Assembly: GCA_018175275.1 (NCBI GenBank)
Contig: GCA_018175275.1_4531.1
Source of the DNA: a phage
Direction: 5' to 3' (one strand)
DNA: 64,000 bases
The translations under genes were made by a program, and so were the position numbers. Below the pieces are notes generated by a model. That model was not told the origin of the DNA. It was given only the letters and a program-made list of their open reading frames with translations, and searched no databases. Of the stretch, positions 9,489-48,262 are shown one piece after another. Positions within the stretch are counted from its first letter, which is position 1, and each line of letters starts with the position of its first letter.

Positions 9489-9567
9489 TGGAGGCGGGAA
9501 TTGGATTTGAACCAATGATCTCCAGCATATGAAACTGGCGAGGACGACCAGACTCCTCTATCCCGCT
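9489..9567 (-). tRNA. tRNA-Met(CAT): tRNA-Met/Ile2 (CAT)
   Basis: acceptor AGCGGGA/TCCCGCC (1:72 mismatch), D-stem GAGG/CCTC, anticodon loop TT-CAT-AT, T-arm ATTGG-TTCAAAT-CCAAT, CCA encoded. Confidence 0.5.
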
Positions 9568-9645
9568 ATTATGTATCCCGTGCTGGATTCGAACCAGCGT
9601 CACAATAAATTGTGGATCTCTTATCCTGTAAGTCTAACGGGAAAC
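9568..9645 (-). tRNA. tRNA-like element, anticodon arm not resolvable (possible degenerate tRNA)
   Basis: canonical T-arm GCTGG-TTCGAAT-CCAGC and 6/7 acceptor complementarity, but no canonical 7-nt anticodon loop found by eye. Confidence 0.25.
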
Positions 9646-9719
9646 TGGTTGTTTCGACAAGAATCGAACTTGTATCTCACGATTATCAGTCGTGGGTTCT
9701 ACCATTGAACTACGAAACA
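9646..9719 (-). tRNA. tRNA-Ile(GAT): tRNA-Ile (GAT)
   Basis: acceptor TGTTTCG/CGAAACA, D-stem GTTC/GAAC, anticodon stem CACGA/TCGTG with loop CT-GAT-AA, T-arm ACAAG-TTCGATT-CTTGT, CCA encoded. Confidence 0.7.
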
Positions 9720-9782
9720 TTTAAAAGAATATCTCACGTCTGATACAGACTAACCTTTTGTCTGACGCATGAAATATTTAAT

Positions 9783-9859
9783 TGGTCGGAATTGCAGGAT
9801 TCGAACCTGCGACCCTACGCTCCCAAAGCGTATGCTCTACCAAACTGAGCTAAATTCCG
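9783..9859 (-). tRNA. tRNA-Pro(TGG): tRNA-Pro (TGG)
   Basis: acceptor CGGAATT/AATTCCG, D-stem GCTC/GAGC, anticodon stem TACGC/GCGTA with loop TT-TGG-GA, T-arm GCAGG-TTCGAAT-CCTGC; 5' end overlaps the stop of the HNH gene. Confidence 0.7.
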
Positions 9860-10368
9860 TTATTAATGTGCTTCCATGTGGTGTAAGTAACAATATCCTG
9901 TATTGTCCATCTTGAAACTTCATACTTTTTTGCCAATGCTCGTTGACTAATTTTAGTAGTCTCATACTCCATACGGATTTGAATAACATCTTTTTCTGAT
10001 AACTTGGCTTTATTATTTTCTTCCCCTTTAGGATTAACAAGTAATCCTGTGCTAACAGCGTGTGTCATATTCTCATGCTGTGTCGCCCACTCCACGTTAT
10101 CCTTGTGGTTGTTAAGCTTGTTACCATCTTTGTGATTAACAGATTTCTTGTTTTCAGGATTAGGATGAAAAGCTTTACAAACCAAACGGTGAATCTTAAA
10201 ACAAATACTTTTTCCTTTTCTACCGCCAATTTTTGTTGCGTGGGTATAGTAACCTGTTTTAGATATGGTTTGGGATAGTATCTTATTAGTTCTCTTACTT
10301 CTTAATCTTCCGAGGTCACTTATTTGGAAGTAATTCTCATAACCAGCTACATCACGCCATTCTTCCAT
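9850..10368 (-). CDS. HNH homing endonuclease (NUMOD4-like N-terminus) inside the tRNA cluster
   Basis: 172 aa; N-terminal EEWRDVAGYENYFQISDLGRLRS; HNH core HRLVCKAFHPNPENKKSVNHKDGNKLNNHKDNVEWATQHEN; AAGGAGG RBS. Confidence 0.6.
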   Translation of the reverse strand: MEEWRDVAGYENYFQISDLGRLRSKRTNKILSQTISKTGYYTHATKIGGRKGKSICFKIHRLVCKAFHPNPENKKSVNHKDGNKLNNHKDNVEWATQHENMTHAVSTGLLVNPKGEENNKAKLSEKDVIQIRMEYETTKISQRALAKKYEVSRWTIQDIVTYTTWKHINNGI

Positions 10369-10494
10369 TTATACCTCCTTATACCTGAATAAAACAATAA
10401 ACCATTTAATGAAGGGCAACCAGAAGAAGTGTGAGAGAAGGAGAAAACCATGAGTAAAAGAGAAAGTTTTCTGGCAACCCTTTATTAAATAATT

Positions 10495-10571
10495 TGGAGC
10501 GTTATATCGGATTCGAACCGATGCCACCGACTTGGAAGGACGGGATGCTGAACCGCTAACACTAATAACGC
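10495..10571 (-). tRNA. tRNA-Gly(TCC): tRNA-Gly (TCC)
   Basis: perfect acceptor GCGTTAT/ATAACGC, anticodon loop CT-TCC-AA, T-arm ATCGG-TTCGAAT-CCGAT, CCA encoded; D-arm slightly irregular. Confidence 0.6.
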
Positions 10572-10588
10572 TTTGTATATATATATTT

Positions 10589-10618
10589 ACTATACTACAT
10601 TTTACTATCGAATGTCAA
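10589..10618 (-). promoter_or_regulatory. sigma70-like promoter (TTGACA-N18-TATAGT) driving tRNA-Gly
   Basis: minus-strand TTGACA (plus 10613-10618) and TATAGT (plus 10589-10594), about 20 nt upstream of the tRNA 5' end. Confidence 0.5.
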
Positions 10619-10893
10619 TAGTTATTTAATAGGTGGGACAGTGACGAGTATCCCTTTGGGTGACTAGCCCTACGTTCGGTAAGCTAACTTAAAATAATAC
10701 AAAACCAAAGTCAAATATTATTCTTCGTTGCTGTCGATGGGAGAGCCGCTTCTCATTTTGCCCCATCCAACCCTACTCCGGTCAAGTTTCGGGTGACTCT
10801 TTTTGTGATCAACACAATACTAAGAACACTGTCTTTCGAGCAGACCTTGTGCACAGGATACGACGATCAATCACAGTGCTCTTAATGTTGTGT

Positions 10894-10968
10894 TGGTGCT
10901 CCCACACTGAATCGAACAGAGATCCACGGATTACAAAACCGTTGTAATAGCCATTATACTATAGGAGC
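10894..10968 (-). tRNA. tRNA-Thr(TGT): tRNA-Thr (TGT)
   Basis: acceptor GCTCCTA/TGGGAGC (one G-U), 3-bp D-stem, anticodon stem ACGG/CCGT with loop TT-TGT-AA, T-loop TTCGATT, CCA encoded. Confidence 0.5.
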
Positions 10969-10973
10969 AATGC

Positions 10974-11051
10974 TGGGACTCGGCAGGATTCGATACCTGC
11001 AATTCCAGAAGCCTATTGGCGACTGGGGGTTTACCTTAACTCTACAAGTCC
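10974..11051 (-). tRNA. tRNA-like element with 8-nt T-loop and non-canonical anticodon region
   Basis: T-arm GCAGG-TATCGAAT-CCTGC and acceptor complementarity GGACTTG/CGAGTCC; central region forms an extended hairpin instead of a standard anticodon arm. Confidence 0.25.
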
Positions 11052-11058
11052 ATAATTC

Positions 11059-11144
11059 TGGCGATGAGTATAGGATTCGAACCTATATTGTTCTTTCGAA
11101 CACGGATTAACAGTCCGCCGCTTAAACCATTCAGCCAACTCATC
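11059..11144 (-). tRNA. tRNA-Asn(GTT): tRNA-Asn (GTT) with unusually long variable region
   Basis: perfect acceptor GATGAGT/ACTCATC; anticodon arm GCGGA-CTGTTAA-TCCGT; about 14-nt variable hairpin GTTC-GAAA-GAAC; T-arm ATAGG-TTCGAAT-CCTAT. Confidence 0.5.
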
Positions 11145-11150
11145 TTAATT

Positions 11151-11238
11151 TGGTGGTGAGTGATGGAGTCGAACCACCCGAATCGCAATGATAACAGATT
11201 TACAGTCTGCCCCGCTACCCCTACGGAATTAACTCACC
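11151..11238 (-). tRNA. tRNA-Tyr(GTA): tRNA-Tyr (GTA), type II
   Basis: perfect acceptor GGTGAGT/ACTCACC, anticodon stem GCAGA/TCTGT with loop CT-GTA-AA, long variable arm, T-loop TTCGACT, CCA encoded. Confidence 0.6.
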
Positions 11239-11368
11239 TAAATACTAATATTTAAATTCTTTTTAAAATAGCCAGTGTTCACACCACTAACTATGAGTTA
11301 TCGGTAAAGTGGTTACCGCCACTTGCCGAAGATTTACTCTGCTAAAGTAAGCTACATTAAAAAGAACT

Positions 11369-11454
11369 TGGCGGTAGATGTAGGACTCGAACCTACACGC
11401 CGTTTCCGACTACAGTTTAGCAAACTGTCGTGGCTACCATTTCACCAATCTACC
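11369..11454 (-). tRNA. tRNA-Ser(GCT): tRNA-Ser (GCT), type II
   Basis: perfect acceptor GGTAGAT/ATCTACC, anticodon stem ACAGT/ACTGT with loop TT-GCT-AA, long variable arm, T-arm GTAGG-TTCGAGT-CCTAC, CCA encoded. Confidence 0.7.
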
Positions 11455-11459
11455 TAATC

Positions 11460-11550
11460 TGGCGGAAGGAGGGAGAGTCGAACTCCCAAGGCTCTTTCAA
11501 GCTCGGCGGTTTTCAAGACCGTTTTCGTCGCCACATCGATTTGCCCTTCC
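11460..11550 (-). tRNA. tRNA-Ser(TGA): tRNA-Ser (TGA), type II
   Basis: acceptor GGAAGGG/TCCTTCC, anticodon loop CT-TGA-AA, long variable arm GAGCTTGAAAGAGCCTT, T-arm GGGAG-TTCGACT-CTCCC, CCA encoded. Confidence 0.65.
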
Positions 11551-11559
11551 ATACTTATA

Positions 11560-11588
11560 ATCTAACATAAAATAATGTTTGTTGTCAA
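11560..11588 (-). promoter_or_regulatory. sigma70-like promoter (CTATTGACA -35, weak -10) upstream of tRNA-Ser
   Basis: minus-strand TTGACA (plus 11583-11588); -10 candidate TAGATT at 18-nt spacing. Confidence 0.35.
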
Positions 11589-11784
11589 TAGTTTTTTAAA
11601 ACATTTTACCATGAATGGTGACTCCACCAACCCCCGTTCTCCACGAACGGTGCTCTTCGAGCATTTATGTCTTCTAATATAACCGTGGCCTTTGTTTATA
11701 ATGTCTGACATACTTGCCTCATTCTCTGCCACCATGATCAGTAGTGGGTTCAAATCACTTGAGCTAATTCATGTTAAAATGTTC

Positions 11785-11859
11785 TGGTGTCTTTACAAGG
11801 AATCGAACCTTGACTAAGAGTTTAGAAGACTCCTGTGCTATCCATTACACCATAAAGAC
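11785..11859 (-). tRNA. tRNA-Arg(TCT): tRNA-Arg (TCT)
   Basis: perfect acceptor GTCTTTA/TAAAGAC, D-stem GTGT/GCAC, anticodon stem GGAGT/ACTCT with loop CT-TCT-AA, T-arm CAAGG-TTCGATT-CCTTG, CCA encoded. Confidence 0.7.
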
Positions 11860-11861
11860 TT

Positions 11862-11936
11862 TGGTGGCCCTGGCTGGTTTCGATCCAGCTACCTATCGGT
11901 TATGAGCCGACAGCTCTCCCATTGAGCTACAGGGCC
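11862..11936 (-). tRNA. tRNA-Met(CAT): tRNA-Met or Ile2 (CAT)
   Basis: perfect acceptor GGCCCTG/CAGGGCC, D-stem GCTC/GAGC, anticodon stem GTCGG/CCGAT with loop CT-CAT-AA, T-arm GCTGG-ATCGAAA-CCAGC, CCA encoded; acceptor resembles E. coli tRNA-Ile2. Confidence 0.65.
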
Positions 11937-42778: not shown

Positions 42779-43518
42779 TCATACATAGAGAAATTACTGT
42801 TAAAAGCGATCAAGATCTTTTTATAATTGGAGATCTACACGGTTGTTATAATTTGTATGAAAAAGGAAAGGCAAAGTTAGGTATCCGAGATACAGATGTA
42901 GTTGTATCTTTAGGAGATCTTACTGACCGTGGAAAGCAAAACTTTCGTTGTGTTTTAGAATTTACTCGTAAACACAACCGCTACGCTATTCGTGGAAATC
43001 ATGAAGACATGATGATTAAAGGTATGCTGGAAGGAGATCGTAGCTACTTCGAGTGTTGGTATCAAAATGGAGGATATACAGTCCTTGAAGAATGTGGTGA
43101 AGAAGGAGCTACAGCCTTAGCAATGATGACAGAAGATTTACCTGTTGTTCTCATTGTTAACTACAGAGGCATGAAACTTGCGTTTATTCATGGTGGGTAT
43201 CCATCTTCTTTGGAATATCTCCCTGTAACAGATATTCCAGAATACACTTTGAAGATGACAAAAACACAGGAAAACCGTTTTGCTGAAGCACTTATGTGGG
43301 ACAGAGATATGGTGGACTGTGCTAAAGAGGGAATGAAACTTCCTGTTGTGATGGGTGTGGACTATGTGTTTCATGGACACTCTTATGTAAAAACACCTAT
43401 TATCAATGCGAATCGTGTTTATATGGATACTGGATCTGTGTTCAATAATAACTTAACATTTGCTTATTTCGATATGGACGGTGGTCTTCAATTTTATTCA
43501 ACTCTTGAGGAGGATTAA
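42775..43518 (+). CDS. Ser/Thr protein phosphatase (PPP-family metallophosphatase)
   Basis: 247 aa; GDLHG, GDLTDRG, RGNHE motifs in canonical order. Confidence 0.65.
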   Translation: MIIHREITVKSDQDLFIIGDLHGCYNLYEKGKAKLGIRDTDVVVSLGDLTDRGKQNFRCVLEFTRKHNRYAIRGNHEDMMIKGMLEGDRSYFECWYQNGGYTVLEECGEEGATALAMMTEDLPVVLIVNYRGMKLAFIHGGYPSSLEYLPVTDIPEYTLKMTKTQENRFAEALMWDRDMVDCAKEGMKLPVVMGVDYVFHGHSYVKTPIINANRVYMDTGSVFNNNLTFAYFDMDGGLQFYSTLEED

Positions 43519-43829
43519 TGTATAAGATTACAATTATTCAAAGTGTAGGTAATATCCGTAAAGAAGTTATCTTAGAAACAGAAGATGTTAATCTTGTTCG
43601 TGAGATTGTTTTTAAGGAAGATGACCTGCAAGCTGTAGAATCGGATGCACCGAATCTTATGGTGGATCAAGAATATTCTGAACTTCGTCGTATTTTTGAA
43701 GAGATTCAGAAGAAAGAAACACAACCTACCATAAAACCTTTTGGTCCTTATGATCCGAGCAATCCTAGCAGTCCTTGGATCATGAGAAATACGGAACCCT
43801 ATTATGCACCTTTTGAAATTACTTGCTGA
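43518..43829 (+). CDS. hypothetical protein
   Basis: 103-aa ORF, translationally coupled to the phosphatase. Confidence 0.4.
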   Translation: MYKITIIQSVGNIRKEVILETEDVNLVREIVFKEDDLQAVESDAPNLMVDQEYSELRRIFEEIQKKETQPTIKPFGPYDPSNPSSPWIMRNTEPYYAPFEITC

Positions 43830-43836
43830 GGTGTTT

Positions 43837-44418
43837 ATGGCAGAATTGTTTTATACGGGAGTTGGAAGTAGAGACATCTCCAAAGAAGAGTGGGCTTTGA
43901 TGGTAGGCATAGGGAAATGGCTTTCCAACCTTGGATTTAAATTAAGGTCTGGGAAGGCAGAGGGTAGTGATTCTGCTTTTGAAACAGGTGTCCAAGAGTC
44001 TGAAAATCCTAGCAACAAGGAGATTTATGTACCTTGGGAAAATTTCAAAGGTAATCAGATTCCAGGTGATGTTATTGTTCTTGCAAAACCAGATACAATG
44101 AACTATGCTATCTCTGTGCAATGGATCAAAGATGTTCACCCAGCTTATGAAAAGCTTAAGCAGGGCGCTAGAAAATTGCACCAACGTAATGTGCATCAGG
44201 TGTTAGGTAAAGATTTGGAGAATCCTGCTCCATCATGTTTCTTGTTGGCTTGTGCCGATACTGATAAACATGGAGATGCAAAAGGTGGAACAGCTACGGC
44301 TTGGAAGATAGCTAAAGCCAATAATGTTCCTTGTTTAAACATTCGTGGGAAAACAAAACAAGAGATTTACGATTTTCTACGACCTTTGGTAATGAGGGCA
44401 ATAACAAGTGATTCCTAA
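43837..44418 (+). CDS. hypothetical Rossmann-like protein (DprA/SLOG-type motif)
   Basis: GVGSRDIS ... LRSGKAEGSDSAFETG resembles the GxGxR...SGxAxGxD pattern of DprA/LOG-like folds; start set at ATG 43837. Confidence 0.3.
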   Translation: MAELFYTGVGSRDISKEEWALMVGIGKWLSNLGFKLRSGKAEGSDSAFETGVQESENPSNKEIYVPWENFKGNQIPGDVIVLAKPDTMNYAISVQWIKDVHPAYEKLKQGARKLHQRNVHQVLGKDLENPAPSCFLLACADTDKHGDAKGGTATAWKIAKANNVPCLNIRGKTKQEIYDFLRPLVMRAITSDS

Positions 44419-44920
44419 ACGTAAACGTGGTGAACAAAGAACAAACTTGGCAGAAATCTTAGATTACAACATGGTTAATGATGTGACAAAAGAAATTCTG
44501 CCTGTTGTAGAAGATATTCTTCAAAGAGGGTTACGATTCTGCTCGGATCGGGTGCATTTCATGTGGACACATAAAAGTGACTCCGCTTTGAATTTCTATC
44601 CTTTGGACTATACTCTGAACAATACGGAGATGAAAGATATCAACAAATACTTAATGGGATATAAAGATATAACAGAAACTGTTCTTGGAGAATTGGCAGA
44701 AATCTTGGCTAACGATATCCTTAGAAATATTAATAAGGCTCTTGACAGAAGCCCAGCAGGAGTAGTAGTATCTTTTGCTGTGCCAGATATGGTTAAATAT
44801 GAGTCTACAATACCTAATAAAGCTTATGCCTTTCTTCGGAGAGACGTTCGTGGAAATGTGTTGGAGATGGAGTCAAACTACAAGATTGAGGAGGTTTTAT
44901 GGCAGAGTTCGGATCAGTAA
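44408..44920 (+). CDS. hypothetical protein
   Basis: 170-aa ORF. Confidence 0.4.
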   Translation: MIPKRKRGEQRTNLAEILDYNMVNDVTKEILPVVEDILQRGLRFCSDRVHFMWTHKSDSALNFYPLDYTLNNTEMKDINKYLMGYKDITETVLGELAEILANDILRNINKALDRSPAGVVVSFAVPDMVKYESTIPNKAYAFLRRDVRGNVLEMESNYKIEEVLWQSSDQ

Positions 44921-45189
44921 CAAGTTTTGAAAGTAACTTCGTTACCGCTTGGGAAGCTTGGGATGAAATGGGTGTTGGGGAACTTTATTTTTACAATGTA
45001 ACACTACGTCCAGAGTATGCTTACCTGGTACCAGAAGGAACAGTTCAAATTGGCATGTATTTGTCTTCTCAAGACGGTGTTGTTCAATTTGAGTTTTATT
45101 CTAACACAACGGACAACGAATTTACATACCGCGCATTTCATGTCAACATGTCTTTAGGAGAGGAGAAATTTTATGACGACCAAGTTTAA
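44899..45189 (+). CDS. hypothetical protein
   Basis: 96-aa ORF. Confidence 0.35.
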   Translation: MAEFGSVTSFESNFVTAWEAWDEMGVGELYFYNVTLRPEYAYLVPEGTVQIGMYLSSQDGVVQFEFYSNTTDNEFTYRAFHVNMSLGEEKFYDDQV

Positions 45190-45370
45190 AACAGTAGAAG
45201 AAGCCGTAAAAGCAGCTTATGATGCTTTAGCGGAAGCAGAGCAGTTAGCAGACGAGACTGGAGAAGGTTTCCATTTCTCCCCTGAATATGGGATGGGTGG
45301 TTATTATGATCCAGAAGATGAAAATGAGAATACTGGGACAAATTGGCATCCATCTTCTTTAAGTTGTTAA
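45173..45370 (+). CDS. small acidic protein with C-terminal W-H-P-S-S-L-S-C tail (family member 1)
   Basis: 65 aa, AGGAGAGGAG RBS; C-terminus NWHPSSLSC. Confidence 0.5.
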   Translation: MTTKFKTVEEAVKAAYDALAEAEQLADETGEGFHFSPEYGMGGYYDPEDENENTGTNWHPSSLSC

Positions 45371-45381
45371 TAGGAGGTAAA

Positions 45382-45657
45382 GTGGGAATCGAAGATATCA
45401 AAGGTTATAAGGCGCATACTGACGATAAGATTGGCAAGGTTAACGCTATTAAAGATGCAGAAGAGCGTTTAGGTTTAATCTTCAAAGCTTTAGAGGAAGA
45501 GTATTGTGAAGCATATCATGGGTCTTTTGACGGCACAGAAAAAGAATTAGATGTTGCATACGAGCGTATTGATCAAATCCGTTGTGCTATTAAACATTTA
45601 AAAGAAGCTAGTATGTGGGCTTGTCGTTCAGTTTTCCAACCGGAGGAGAAATACTAA
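45382..45657 (+). CDS. hypothetical protein between tail-motif family members
   Basis: GTG 45382 after TAGGAGGTAAA; about 92 aa. Confidence 0.35.
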   Translation: MGIEDIKGYKAHTDDKIGKVNAIKDAEERLGLIFKALEEEYCEAYHGSFDGTEKELDVAYERIDQIRCAIKHLKEASMWACRSVFQPEEKY

Positions 45658-45875
45658 TGAGTGATCGTAATGTTGAAGAATTAACTGAAAAAGCCCAAGC
45701 TATTATGGCTTTAGTGGACGAACTTACAAAAGAAGCTGAAGATGCTGGTTTTGGTCTTAGTTTAGAAGATAACGCAATCTGTTTTGAAGATTGGCAATCC
45801 TCTTCTTGTTATGGTGAAGGTGATGATGGTTTTGTCGTTAATTCTCAAGGTGTTTGGCATAGTAGTAGCTGTTAA
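45656..45875 (+). CDS. small acidic protein with internal DWQSSSC and C-terminal VWHSSSC (family member 2)
   Basis: 73 aa from ATG 45656 with GGAGGAGAAA RBS. Confidence 0.5.
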
Positions 45876-45884
45876 GGAGAGATT

Positions 45885-46157
45885 GTGGAGTCTGAAGGCG
45901 AACTGCTGATAAAAAAGAAAGTTAAAGAGATGGAACAAGCACAGAGAAAGTTTCGTAAGGAAATTGAAGAACTTTGTGAACAGTTTCAGGAACAAGCTTG
46001 GATAGGTGACTACGGCAACGGAGAAACTTATTACCCTACAGGAACGCCAGCCGCAGATCACTATATTGATTTCATTTGTGAAGATTATGGTGTAGAGTTG
46101 GATGAAAATGGTTTAACCACAAGAGGTGTTTGGATCTCTTCTTCCTCAATGTGTTAG
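45885..46157 (+). CDS. small acidic protein with C-terminal VWISSSSMC tail (family member 3)
   Basis: 90 aa, GTG start with AAGGAGAG RBS; followed by terminator. Confidence 0.5.
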   Translation: MESEGELLIKKKVKEMEQAQRKFRKEIEELCEQFQEQAWIGDYGNGETYYPTGTPAADHYIDFICEDYGVELDENGLTTRGVWISSSSMC

Positions 46158-46165
46158 TAAATAAT

Positions 46166-46187
46166 AACCCGCTTCGGCGGGTTTTTT
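46166..46187 (+). terminator. rho-independent terminator
   Basis: stem CCCGC/GCGGG with TTCG loop followed by TTTTTT. Confidence 0.55.
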
Positions 46188-46188
46188 A

Positions 46189-46217
46189 TTGACAGGAATC
46201 TGGAAGCTTGATAAACT
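46189..46217 (+). promoter_or_regulatory. sigma70-like promoter (TTGACA-N17-TAAACT)
   Basis: -35 46189-46194, -10 46212-46217, directly after the terminator. Confidence 0.45.
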
Positions 46218-46247
46218 TAACCTATCAACCAATAGAGGAGAAATATT

Positions 46248-47189
46248 ATGGTGTTAATTGGTAGCCGTGCATTACAAATTCATGCTATGGACATGGGAAA
46301 AGACTTGTATCGCCCTTGTGTAGATTTAGATTATCTCTGTACAGAACAAGAGTGGGAAGAATTATCAAAAATGTTCTCTCAAGACGAGTTTGTTGAACTT
46401 GTAGAACGTAAAGGGAACAAAGGCCATGTCAAAATGATAGCTGGTGCACATTTGGAATACGATATTGCTTCTCAAGGAGATAGCACAGAAGCTTTGATTA
46501 GTTATTGTGAAGATTCTGATGATGTTCGTCGAACTTACGCTGGACATGTTGTTGCTCCTTTAGATGTGCTCTACCTTCTTAAAATGAGTCATCGTTTTAA
46601 AAAGGATAGTCCTCACTTCTTTAAAACTATGAAAGATATTCATTTCATGCGGTCACTGGGCGCAAAGATCCCAGAAAATCTTAAGAGTATTTATGAGTTG
46701 CGTGAGAAAGAAACATACACTTACTCTCATCCGAACTTAAACGTAAAAAGTAAAGAGTTCTTTAAAGGTGACGAGGTTCCGTATGTTTATGATCATGATT
46801 CTATCCATGAAGCAATCGCGTTAATGGATGCTCCAGCATATAAATCTTATATGAAAGATGGAAGTGAAGTTATGACCAGCAAAGAAAAGTTTTTTGCTCA
46901 ACCAAAACATGTGCGGCTGTTAGGTGTTTATGAAGAAGCGTGTGTTTTGGCTTTGGAACGTTCACAAATTCCTTTCGGTGAAGAGATCGGAGGTCCAACC
47001 CCTAAGCAAAGTTTTATAATGGCTTTATCTAAAGTCTGCACATCCATCACTAGTGGTTGGTTTAGGGAATATGCTTGGGAAAACTTTTATGTTGTTATTA
47101 AGCTATATGAAAACATGGGCGAAAACGACTATGTTGAACGTTTTAAAGCTAATCAACATGTAGTAAAGCCTTTTGAAGGAGGTTATTAA
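46248..47189 (+). CDS. hypothetical protein (possible nucleotidyltransferase fold)
   Basis: 313 aa; N-terminal LIGSRALQIH...CVDLDYL loosely fits the GS...DxD pattern of pol-beta-type nucleotidyltransferases; unverified. Confidence 0.3.
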   Translation: MVLIGSRALQIHAMDMGKDLYRPCVDLDYLCTEQEWEELSKMFSQDEFVELVERKGNKGHVKMIAGAHLEYDIASQGDSTEALISYCEDSDDVRRTYAGHVVAPLDVLYLLKMSHRFKKDSPHFFKTMKDIHFMRSLGAKIPENLKSIYELREKETYTYSHPNLNVKSKEFFKGDEVPYVYDHDSIHEAIALMDAPAYKSYMKDGSEVMTSKEKFFAQPKHVRLLGVYEEACVLALERSQIPFGEEIGGPTPKQSFIMALSKVCTSITSGWFREYAWENFYVVIKLYENMGENDYVERFKANQHVVKPFEGGY

Positions 47190-47586
47190 TATGTGTGGAT
47201 ATCTTTCAGAAAGTTATTTCAAAGTGACGCATGAGGATTTAGAAAAAGCACGATTGAAACTGACAGCTATTATTGAATACTCTAATACTGTTGAACACAG
47301 ATTAAAGACTACTAAAGTATCTGTTCCTTGTTGGTTAGGTTTACGGCATAAAATAATGTCTCAACATGACCATGTTGTTCGAGAGATGCATGGTTGGTGT
47401 TGGTTTCACGATGTGGCTCTGCATTTTGGTTATATTACAGAAGAAGAGCATAGATTCTGTGAACTAACATATCGTATTCCAACCCTTCACGATTTAGATT
47501 TGTGGAAGAAAGCAAACGAGATTTTTCTTACAGAAAGTGATTGGCGTAAAGTTATGGCTTGTCTTGAATGGAGGGGTAATGAGTAA
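47173..47586 (+). CDS. hypothetical protein
   Basis: 137-aa ORF. Confidence 0.4.
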   Translation: MKEVINMCGYLSESYFKVTHEDLEKARLKLTAIIEYSNTVEHRLKTTKVSVPCWLGLRHKIMSQHDHVVREMHGWCWFHDVALHFGYITEEEHRFCELTYRIPTLHDLDLWKKANEIFLTESDWRKVMACLEWRGNE

Positions 47587-48262
47587 AACAGTTTTGTCTA
47601 TGTTTGACGGATCTGGGATCATGGTGTTACGTTATGCCGAAGCAGGTCACAAGTGTTTTTGTGTAAACGCTGATGAAGGGGATCACGGTAAATACGAGGT
47701 TAGGATGGAGCACCCAAACATAACCTATGTGAATGCTTGGATAGATTCTACATTCAACCCTGAAGATCATGGGATACCTAAACCCGATATTATTTTTGGA
47801 TTTCCACCTTGCACTATGTTAGCAGGTAGTGGTAGCAAACACGAACGCAGCACAGAGGAATTGGATGAAGCTTTAGCTAATATTCGTGTAGTGGAAGCTT
47901 TGGGTAACAAATATAATGTTCCTTGGATGATTGAGAACCCAGTAGGTAAACTTTCAACCTTATGGCGTAAACCCGATTTTTACTTTGATCCTTATGAGTA
48001 TGGTGGGTATTTGTTTGAAGAGGAAGGAAGCTTTCATCCTAAAATGCCTACCCGTGATGGGTATACAAAGAAAACTTGTATTTGGCACGGCAATGGTTTT
48101 GTTCAACCAGTGAAGAAACCAGTAGATCATATAGGCTGCTTCTGGGGTTGGAAAAGCTTAGGTGGAGCTAGTGCAAAAACAAAACAACTTAGATCCCTAA
48201 CCGCACGTGGTTTTGCTCGTGCCGTGTTTTTGTCTAACAATCTTCTAGATAAGGAGAAATAA
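47579..48262 (+). CDS. C5-cytosine-methyltransferase-like small protein
   Basis: motif I LSMFDGSG, Pro-Cys motif GFPPCT, ENV-like MIENPVG; about 227 aa, no obvious target-recognition domain; start set at ATG 47579. Confidence 0.4.
   Translation: MSKTVLSMFDGSGIMVLRYAEAGHKCFCVNADEGDHGKYEVRMEHPNITYVNAWIDSTFNPEDHGIPKPDIIFGFPPCTMLAGSGSKHERSTEELDEALANIRVVEALGNKYNVPWMIENPVGKLSTLWRKPDFYFDPYEYGGYLFEEEGSFHPKMPTRDGYTKKTCIWHGNGFVQPVKKPVDHIGCFWGWKSLGGASAKTKQLRSLTARGFARAVFLSNNLLDKEK

Follow-up and report, generated by a model that had tools for sequence, protein, structure and literature searches.

A phage array of small acidic proteins with a terminal Trp-Ser-Cys tail and its linkage to a predicted MenT/AbiEii-like nucleotidyltransferase

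A 64,000-nucleotide stretch of phage DNA (contig GCA_018175275.1_4531.1 of GenBank assembly GCA_018175275.1; the whole of it is the window in what follows) derives from a phAPEC8-like E. coli myovirus (Phapecoctavirus) and carries three small genes whose acidic products, here called tail-Cys proteins, end in a tryptophan, a run of serines and a last cysteine, with the gene for a nucleotidyltransferase next after them (Table 1). Over 44400-47200 there are 65 GenBank phage records that are 98-99% identical, and in these all genes of the array are annotated 'hypothetical'. The linkage of tail-Cys genes to the enzyme gene is near-obligate in both directions and extends over more than 30 phage lineages.

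Table 1. Features of the window referred to in the text (aa, amino acids; nt, nucleotides; pI, isoelectric point)
Feature	Position	Strand	Description
Tail-Cys protein, 'c' subtype	45173..45370	+	65 aa; ATG start; pI 4.10; YGMGG inside; end NWHPSSLSC
Acb2/Tad1-hairpin protein	45382..45657	+	91 aa; GTG start; Pfam PF24729; not a member of the tail-Cys family
Tail-Cys protein, 'b' subtype	45657..45875	+	72 aa; ATG start; pI 4.05; internal DWQSSSC-YGEG and terminal VWHSSSC
Internal DWQSSSC copy of the 'b' protein	45789-45809		
Tail-Cys protein, 'a' subtype	45885..46157	+	90 aa; GTG start; pI 4.40; contains GDYGNGETYYPTGT; end GVWISSSSMC
Intrinsic-terminator-like hairpin	46166..46183	+	7 bp stem with 5 GC pairs, loop of 4, then TTTTTATT (T-run); closes the array
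Sigma-70-like promoter	46189..46217	+	TTGACA, 17 nt, TAAACT, extended TG; upstream of the nucleotidyltransferase gene; consensus match only
Nucleotidyltransferase (DUF7277 + DUF7275)	46248..47189	+	313 aa; predicted MenT/AbiEii-like Pol-beta fold
Cys264 of the nucleotidyltransferase	~47037-47039		
First gene after the enzyme	47173-47586	+	137 aa; no Pfam or NCBIfam match
Second gene after the enzyme	47537-48262	+	about 207-241 aa; FPPC motif; no Pfam or NCBIfam match
phrog_8569 protein	44408-44920	+	170 aa; end VLWQSSDQ
phrog_15301 protein	43518-43829	+	103 aa
Cluster of nine phage tRNA genes	9489-11936	-	Met x2, Ile, Pro, Gly, Thr, Asn, Ser, Arg

An AGGAG-type ribosome-binding site stands 6-9 nt before each of the three tail-Cys genes, and the hairpin that closes the array, 91 nt of sequence separating the array end from the nucleotidyltransferase start, corresponds in position to a terminator annotated in phage Moon. 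These sites had been described in a first-pass annotation made from the letters alone, as had the three open reading frames (ORFs) with their tails, the acidity of the products and the internal motif copy in the middle one; all of this is borne out, with the start of the middle gene moved from 45656 to 45657. The three were also said to be adjacent paralogs; they are paralogs, but the first and second are separated by the Acb2/Tad1-hairpin gene. The stop of that gene overlaps the ATG of the 'b' gene (TAATG), and its product matches PF24729 (E 1.3e-16, 60.9 bits against a cut-off of 27) and also phrog_717, so identifying it, at the level of sequence, as a homolog of Acb2, the sponge that counters the cyclic-oligonucleotide-based antiphage signalling system (CBASS).

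Chance is not the explanation for the shared tails: the six-frame ORFs of the window contain 5 matches to W-x(1-2)-S-S-x(0-3)-C, of which 3 close an ORF, where shuffling (n=100) gives means of 0.7 and 0.03. The relationship of the three proteins is visible only with profiles because pairwise BLASTP is nearly blind to it (E 0.04, 0.013 and none). All three match PHROG 899, a family without assigned function (E 3.4e-13 for 'c', 9.5e-6 for 'b' and 5.1e-14 for 'a'), and they cover the same positions of its profile, 148-221. When subtype alignments made from related loci are compared by hhalign, the probabilities are 99.3% for a with c (E 1e-20, full length), 95.7% for a with b and 91.8% for b with c, and the conservation spans the whole domain and not the tail alone. 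Judged by these profiles the three are true paralogs of one phage-only domain family. Its domain runs from an N-terminal helix of about 30 residues ending A-E-x-[IL]-A-D-E-x-G-x-x-F, through a Y-G-x-G-x-x-Y-x-P hairpin and a variable insert, to G-x-W-x-S-S-S-x-x-C, and the helix with A-D-E-x-G-x-x-F, the Y-G-x-G hairpin and a terminal W-x-S-S-(S)-x(0-2)-Cys are present in each of the window proteins. The signatures of the subtypes are GDYGNGETYYP ... WISSSxMC for 'a', the doubled motif DWxSSSC-YGEG ... WxSSSC for 'b', with orthologs in Moon, JS98, Aeromonas phage 31 and the metagenomic relative L003, and YGMGG for 'c'. Searches of Pfam, NCBIfam, PADLOC and PDB sequences gave no match for the small proteins, in keeping with the first-pass statement that they fit no characterized family.

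The tail was proposed at the outset as the mark of the family, and it is conserved in the homologs. Neither of the findings named in the first-pass annotation as refuting this, a characterized family in which the tail varies or homologs that lack the motif, was obtained. Those of the 90-aa protein come from T4-like phages of Enterobacter, Edwardsiella, Klebsiella and Pectobacterium and from metagenomes; 46 of 47 full-length ones end W-[VI]-S-S-S-x-M-C, the sole exception being a truncated sequence, and an alignment of 40 has T48, Y49, P51, G53, G81, W83, S86, S87 and C90 invariant. An exhaustive hidden Markov model (HMM) search of 1.84 billion representatives (50% identity clusters) yields 80 proteins at E<=1e-3, nearly all of them 48-139 aa long with the terminal motif and many with additional internal [DE]-W-x-S-S repeats. 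Gathering from about 90 related loci gave 210 unique tail-Cys members with a median length of 81 aa and a median pI of 4.35. In these the tryptophan and the serine at W+3 are invariant and cysteine is the last residue in about 95%, with W-x-S-S-S-x-x-C (157) and W-x-[SP]-S-S-C (45) as the tail classes. Serine spacing is fixed relative to the tryptophan and not to the cysteine, which is at W+5 or W+7. The terminal cysteine is the only one in 83 members and is also the only one in the 65-aa 'c' protein of the window.

An AlphaFold2 model of the 90-aa protein, built on the 40-sequence alignment, has a predicted local distance difference test (pLDDT) value of 93.4, and its elements are a helix (4-34), short strands (38-40 and 47-50), a second helix (62-67), a strand formed by VWIS (82-85) and a helical turn formed by SSSM (86-89). 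As modelled, the tail belongs to the folded domain and is not a free peptide.

Two NHL-repeat beta-propeller proteins, P0086 and P0106, are weakly picked up by the family HMM through Y-G-S-G-x-G-Q-F-Y-Y-P-x-G. They were rejected as homologs, having only the NHL blade motif in common with the tail-Cys family, and the resemblance of the family hairpin Y-G-x-G-x-T-Y-Y-P-x-G to a single NHL blade motif is probably convergence. The phrog_8569 protein was considered as a degenerate member and also rejected: its ending is not kept in its homologs and is due to chance. A second small acidic family, phrog_15301, has an invariant terminal cysteine in a tail of the form P-F-x-[IV]-T-C (NPFEITC, PFTVTC, PFTITC, PMTITC) and occurs, in addition to the window, at L003, L013-L018, L020, L024 and L026; at L017, L018 and L026 its gene adjoins a displaced tail-Cys gene and is not near the enzyme. 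Cysteine at the very end, preceded by a hydroxyl residue, may recur more widely in the region.

The first-pass annotation saw no large modifying enzyme beside the trio. That view has to be abandoned, as the next gene encodes a conserved nucleotidyltransferase with its catalytic residues intact and is almost always linked to the tail-Cys family. The only significant Pfam matches of the 313-aa protein are DUF7277 (E 7.6e-14) and DUF7275 (E 1.2e-75). Homologs form 2,211 protein clusters, and 735 GenBank phage records carry the enzyme. In an alignment of 48 of the clusters G5, S6, D26, D28 and E70 are invariant, which is the hG[GS] / DxD / third-acid signature of Pol-beta nucleotidyltransferases. 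An AlphaFold2 model (pLDDT 92.2) has as its structural matches MenT1 toxin (11.5), TglT/MenT3 (10.1), ANT(2'') (9.7), Megavirus poly(A) polymerase (9.5), MenT4 (9.0), JHP933-like (8.7) and LnuA (8.7). From its model, then, the enzyme has a MenT/AbiEii-like nucleotidyltransferase fold with an intact catalytic motif. PADLOC models, including those for AbiE, do not match it.

In every lineage first inspected the tail genes are directly upstream of the enzyme gene: three in the window and in Citrobacter phage Moon, five in L003 and in JS98, four in Pseudomonas phage PE09, two each in Acinetobacter phage Lazarus and Aeromonas phage 31 and 1-2 in Acidovorax phage ACP17. Among enzyme-centred IMG/VR loci 71/80 have 1-6 strict-motif ORFs on the same strand within 4 kb upstream, 14/80 being single-member loci, and only 6 motif hits are found elsewhere in the 1.29 Mb of six-frame sequence of these 80 loci. 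By simple gene calls family members account for 188/835 of the upstream genes and 0/1,367 of the downstream ones. When enzymes are collapsed at <70% identity to 38 lineages, a strict-motif tail gene is upstream in 33 and a relaxed-motif one in 36. When the tail genes are taken as the starting point, each of the 16 'a'-type loci is on an enzyme-bearing contig, and at 45 of the 48 'c'-type loci the enzyme gene follows downstream within 2 kb; of the remaining three, two are on truncated contigs, leaving 45/46 informative loci. (The 'c'-type search used a narrower alignment, the first having had no conserved stretch.) Flanking genes vary between lineages (nrdD, thyX, a helicase), and no other neighbouring gene family is common to more than 5 of them. 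In T4-like phages the module is located between e.6 and nudE among mostly small hypothetical genes, and the number of genes in the array varies by phage. A scan of bacteria and archaea with one genome per species (100,044 species) found only 4 loci, all of them on contigs of metagenome-assembled genomes and all with upstream tail genes; the module is phage-restricted.

In three of the enzyme-side exceptions a gene with a degenerate tail (..GWAPSNVCW, ..AWTPSGCSY) directly precedes the enzyme, and in one group a tail-Cys member is 6 kb off on the opposite strand. Such variants exist, a few of them in genes that come shortly after the enzyme instead of before it, so that counts by the strict motif are too low for the family. 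The degenerate forms seen are GWQPSAG[IT]C, EGWQHSQVC, GWAPSNVCW and AWTPSGCSY, and the loci are L083, L087 and L075 (~1.2-1.5 kb past the enzyme start), L079 (5771-7336), L078 (7519-7980) and L085 (7244-7477). Of the two genes that come after the enzyme in the window, the second is conserved downstream of it in the L017/L026 relatives.

Distant homologs of the enzyme, with 27-36% identity, are present without tail-Cys genes in Streptomyces phage Wakanda (L009), Gordonia phage Abscondus (L010), Vibrio phage K406 (L011) and Alteromonas phage PT11-V22 (L012). They have another conserved partner, encoded downstream, that is about 100-120 aa long, ends ..EV.P.EK.ITVYE and is fused to the enzyme in PT11-V22. 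Cys264 is part of the most conserved motif of the enzyme, KVC-TSITSGWFREYAWENY (KVC-TSITSGWF), and is invariant in 87/87 enzymes with a strict or degenerate tail gene at the locus; the residue aligned with it in the 4 distant homologs lacking tail partners is Val or Ile. The alignment is suggestive of the presence of Cys264 tracking that of the tail genes. What looked like a fusion of tail domain and enzyme at L122/L123 was rejected as a frame artefact, and no tail domain was found in the long enzyme homologs P0240, P0244 and P0249. In Wakanda the gene for the enzyme homolog is between those for polynucleotide kinase and RNA ligase, and in Abscondus it adjoins a tRNA cluster, contexts that hint at RNA or tRNA end chemistry. 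The window has its own cluster of nine tRNA genes, which is relevant background if its nucleotidyltransferase acts on tRNA 3′ ends.

Linkage of about 95% in both directions, across unrelated contexts, is what is expected of direct partners, whether enzyme and substrate, toxin and antitoxin or subunits of a complex, and not of genes sharing a hot spot. The Acb2 gene provides the contrast, as it is in the array here and in T4-like relatives is outside it, ~6 kb downstream of the nucleotidyltransferase gene. The explanation preferred, tentatively, is that the tail-Cys proteins are active-site-directed partners of the enzyme, either as regulators resembling MenA1, the small partner of MenT1, or as Ser/Cys acceptors. 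The trio would be the small-protein half of a two-part phage module in which the DUF7277/DUF7275 nucleotidyltransferase is the other half, and the small proteins would bind the enzyme with the Ser/Cys tail engaging its active-site region. In one version they would be MenA1-like pseudo-substrates that block the enzyme or shut it down through auto-phosphorylation of its G-S serine, and in the other true acceptors whose tail serines would be phosphorylated or nucleotidylated. Regulation is favoured by the order of the genes, the size of the small proteins, their N-terminal helix and the nearest relatives of the enzyme. The acceptor version has on its side the invariant Ser/Ser/Cys at the extreme C-terminus, tandem genes whose number per enzyme varies, and a catalytic site that is intact. 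The balance leans slightly to regulators. Conservation of the a, b and c subtypes suggests that their roles are non-redundant or that they assemble as a hetero-oligomer. Early expression, together with the Acb2 gene lying inside the array, suggests that the module serves host takeover or counter-defence, and by analogy with MenT toxins such a role would probably be exerted through tRNA or RNA 3′ ends.

Several observations weigh against active-site-directed partnership. A terminator and a promoter-like site are present between array and enzyme in the window and in phage Moon, unlike the arrangement in a classical toxin-antitoxin operon, and the virulent lifestyle of the carrier phages also counts against a classical toxin-antitoxin pair. 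There are 1-6 paralogs with conserved subtypes though one inhibitor would suffice. The 90-aa model has no similarity in a fold search to MenA1 or to any solved structure, and the enzyme has no match to the Pfam DUF1814/AbiEii model. With a pI of 5.6 the enzyme is not basic overall, and charge complementarity between it and the acidic small proteins was rejected for that reason. The negatives in the Cys264 correlation are only four related cases. A few enzymes (L017-19, L026, L070) have no adjacent tail gene, and the only clear tail-side exception to the linkage is a 'c'-type member with three motif copies (..QWVSSDCEGEDGWSDSGCSDGDYDGGWSASSQSC) at 7001-7294 of L139, a 305-kb jumbo-phage contig, with no enzyme within 7 kb.

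The strongest competitor, though a doubtful one, is the first-pass idea in its strong form and makes the tail-Cys proteins outright post-translational substrates: the enzyme would phosphorylate or nucleotidylate the tail serines, possibly with subsequent elimination and cysteine addition, and each paralog would become an active effector, much as several tandem precursors share a single RiPP enzyme. Reactive invariant Ser, Ser and Cys at the very end of highly divergent paralogs, 'precursor-like' tandem genes in varying number upstream of a single enzyme and the intact catalytic residues are as this would have it. Pol-beta enzymes that modify protein hydroxyls exist, such as GlnD, GlnE and MNT, and provide a model. 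MenT-family enzymes can move phosphate to an active-site Ser or Thr (PMC11375011). Against this, the closest structural relatives of the enzyme act on tRNA or small molecules and not on proteins, and the tail is predicted to be folded and not a free peptide. A lanthionine ring of fixed Ser-x-x-Cys type was rejected because it does not fit serines whose positions are tied to the tryptophan and not to the cysteine, and the SflA lanthipeptide model gives no significant match, scoring 12.4 bits where the cut-off is 25. In a form to which similarly low credence is given, the phage would have a dedicated system of protein-tail modification, with the MenT-like enzyme, maybe using its Cys264, phosphorylating or nucleotidylating Ser/Cys tails and so making each paralog a distinct effector against host translation or immunity.

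It is also rather unlikely that the proteins and the enzyme are partners in a pathway without contact between them. The small proteins would then be a homo- or hetero-oligomeric effector, acting on the same host process as the enzyme, with the terminal cysteines pooled in a metal or redox site and the tail structural or metal-binding instead of being presented to the enzyme. Placement of the tail in a confidently folded predicted domain suits this, as does the separate transcription that terminator and promoter-like site would give, and the keeping of a, b and c subtypes across distant phages is as expected of subunits. The many members with a single cysteine could form a site only by oligomerizing; yet the domain is without a second conserved metal ligand, only one member is present at 14/80 loci, and two-way linkage of this degree is more typical of direct partners.

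A much poorer account has independent small anti-defence proteins, mimics of DNA, RNA or protein, gathered beside the enzyme in a hot spot of accessory genes. The strong acidity (pI about 4.1-4.4), the Acb2 gene embedded in the array and, in T4-like phages, a module region of mostly small hypothetical genes with varying array gene count would be in line with it, but two-way linkage in more than 30 lineages whose flanks are otherwise unrelated is not, and Acb2 itself is without such linkage. The neighbours scanned comprise Acb2, the nucleotidyltransferase, a metallophosphoesterase and genes without a family match. Precursors of ribosomally synthesized and post-translationally modified peptides (RiPPs) were among the readings of the trio offered in the first-pass annotation. 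The classical form of this, in which a C-terminal core would be modified, cleaved off and released, takes its appeal from small tandem genes with a common Ser/Cys-rich C-terminus and is scarcely tenable, as the tail is inside a confidently predicted fold conserved over its full length, the carriers are virulent phages and no YcaO, LanB/M/KC or radical-SAM enzyme, protease or transporter was found among those neighbours. The associated suggestion of the C-terminus as a site of chemistry or recognition is viable.

Literature searches yielded no paper on DUF7275, DUF7277, PHROG 899, a phage branch of MenT/AbiEii or phage proteins with such a C-terminal cysteine. The module is present in hundreds of T4-like, phAPEC8-like, Pseudomonas, Acinetobacter and Aeromonas phages, among them well-studied ones (JS98, RB69-like phages, phAPEC8, Aeromonas 31, phiPsa374) in which both halves are annotated only as hypothetical or DUF. 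In bacteria, known MenT/AbiEii enzymes act as toxins or as effectors of abortive infection, and a phage-exclusive branch with obligate small partners suggests that phages have adopted MenT chemistry, or the logic of its control, to take over the host or counter its defences. Tail motif plus enzyme gives a simple rule for placing hundreds of orphan phage genes in one functional unit, and the invariant terminal cysteine and serine run offer a precise experimental handle on the tail-Cys proteins.

Of known systems the nearest is MenA1-MenT1 of M. tuberculosis. MenT toxins add nucleotides to tRNA 3′ ends, and MenA1, a protein of 68 aa encoded upstream of MenT1, has an N-terminal helix that blocks the active site and also brings about auto-phosphorylation of its Thr (PMC10435456, PMC11375011). 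The phage locus likewise has a small protein with an N-terminal helix encoded directly upstream of a MenT-fold nucleotidyltransferase, and in the phage enzyme the G-[ST] phospho-acceptor position is retained along with the acidic triad. The phage module differs in being phage-only, in having 1-6 paralogous partners instead of one and in the terminator between the partners. The phage partner has a fold without a solved relative, no similarity in sequence or fold to MenA1 and an invariant W-x-S-S-S-x-x-Cys C-terminus, and the phage enzyme, at 313 aa, carries DUF7275 as a large additional helical domain and is not matched by Pfam DUF1814.

AbiEi-AbiEii resembles the phage module in having a partner protein encoded upstream of a nucleotidyltransferase; AbiEii, like the MenT toxins, is a member of the DUF1814 nucleotidyltransferase superfamily, and AbiEi is a two-domain COG5340-type antitoxin (PMC10435456). 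The phage partners are acidic proteins of 65-90 aa and not of the two-domain AbiEi type, and whereas AbiE is a bacterial defence, the phage module is in virulent phages and is not matched by PADLOC models. In the pairs GlnD/PII, GlnE/glutamine synthetase and MNT/HEPN the enzyme has a Pol-beta fold and its target is a hydroxyl on a small partner protein. They are the model for the acceptor reading of the tail-Cys proteins, but none of these enzymes is among the top structural matches, and their acceptors are tyrosines in loops, not a C-terminal Ser/Cys tail.

Pearlin pathways carry out chemistry on a C-terminal cysteine borne by a scaffold peptide, and multi-precursor RiPP and pearlin loci have in common with the phage arrays tandem small genes with a conserved reactive C-terminus beside one enzyme. 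In the tail-Cys proteins, however, the cysteine is encoded in the gene and the predicted structure is a folded one, the enzyme has another fold, and no downstream genes for a tailoring enzyme, protease or exporter are seen at the phage loci. The sponges Acb2, Tad1, Tad2 and Acb4 are also small, early accessory phage proteins, one of them embedded in the array here. Sponges for nucleotides use positively charged inter-subunit pockets (bioRxiv 10.1101/2025.07.12.664507); the tail-Cys proteins share no HMM or fold with them, and with pI values near 4 such a role is unlikely. Among known systems the module fits best as a phage-borne variant of the MenT-type nucleotidyltransferase paired with a small partner, in which the partner family is new in fold and its invariant tail unexplained. 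Should the tail turn out to be modified, this would be a system of a categorically new kind, an enzyme with multiple substrates forming a folded-protein analogue of RiPP logic.

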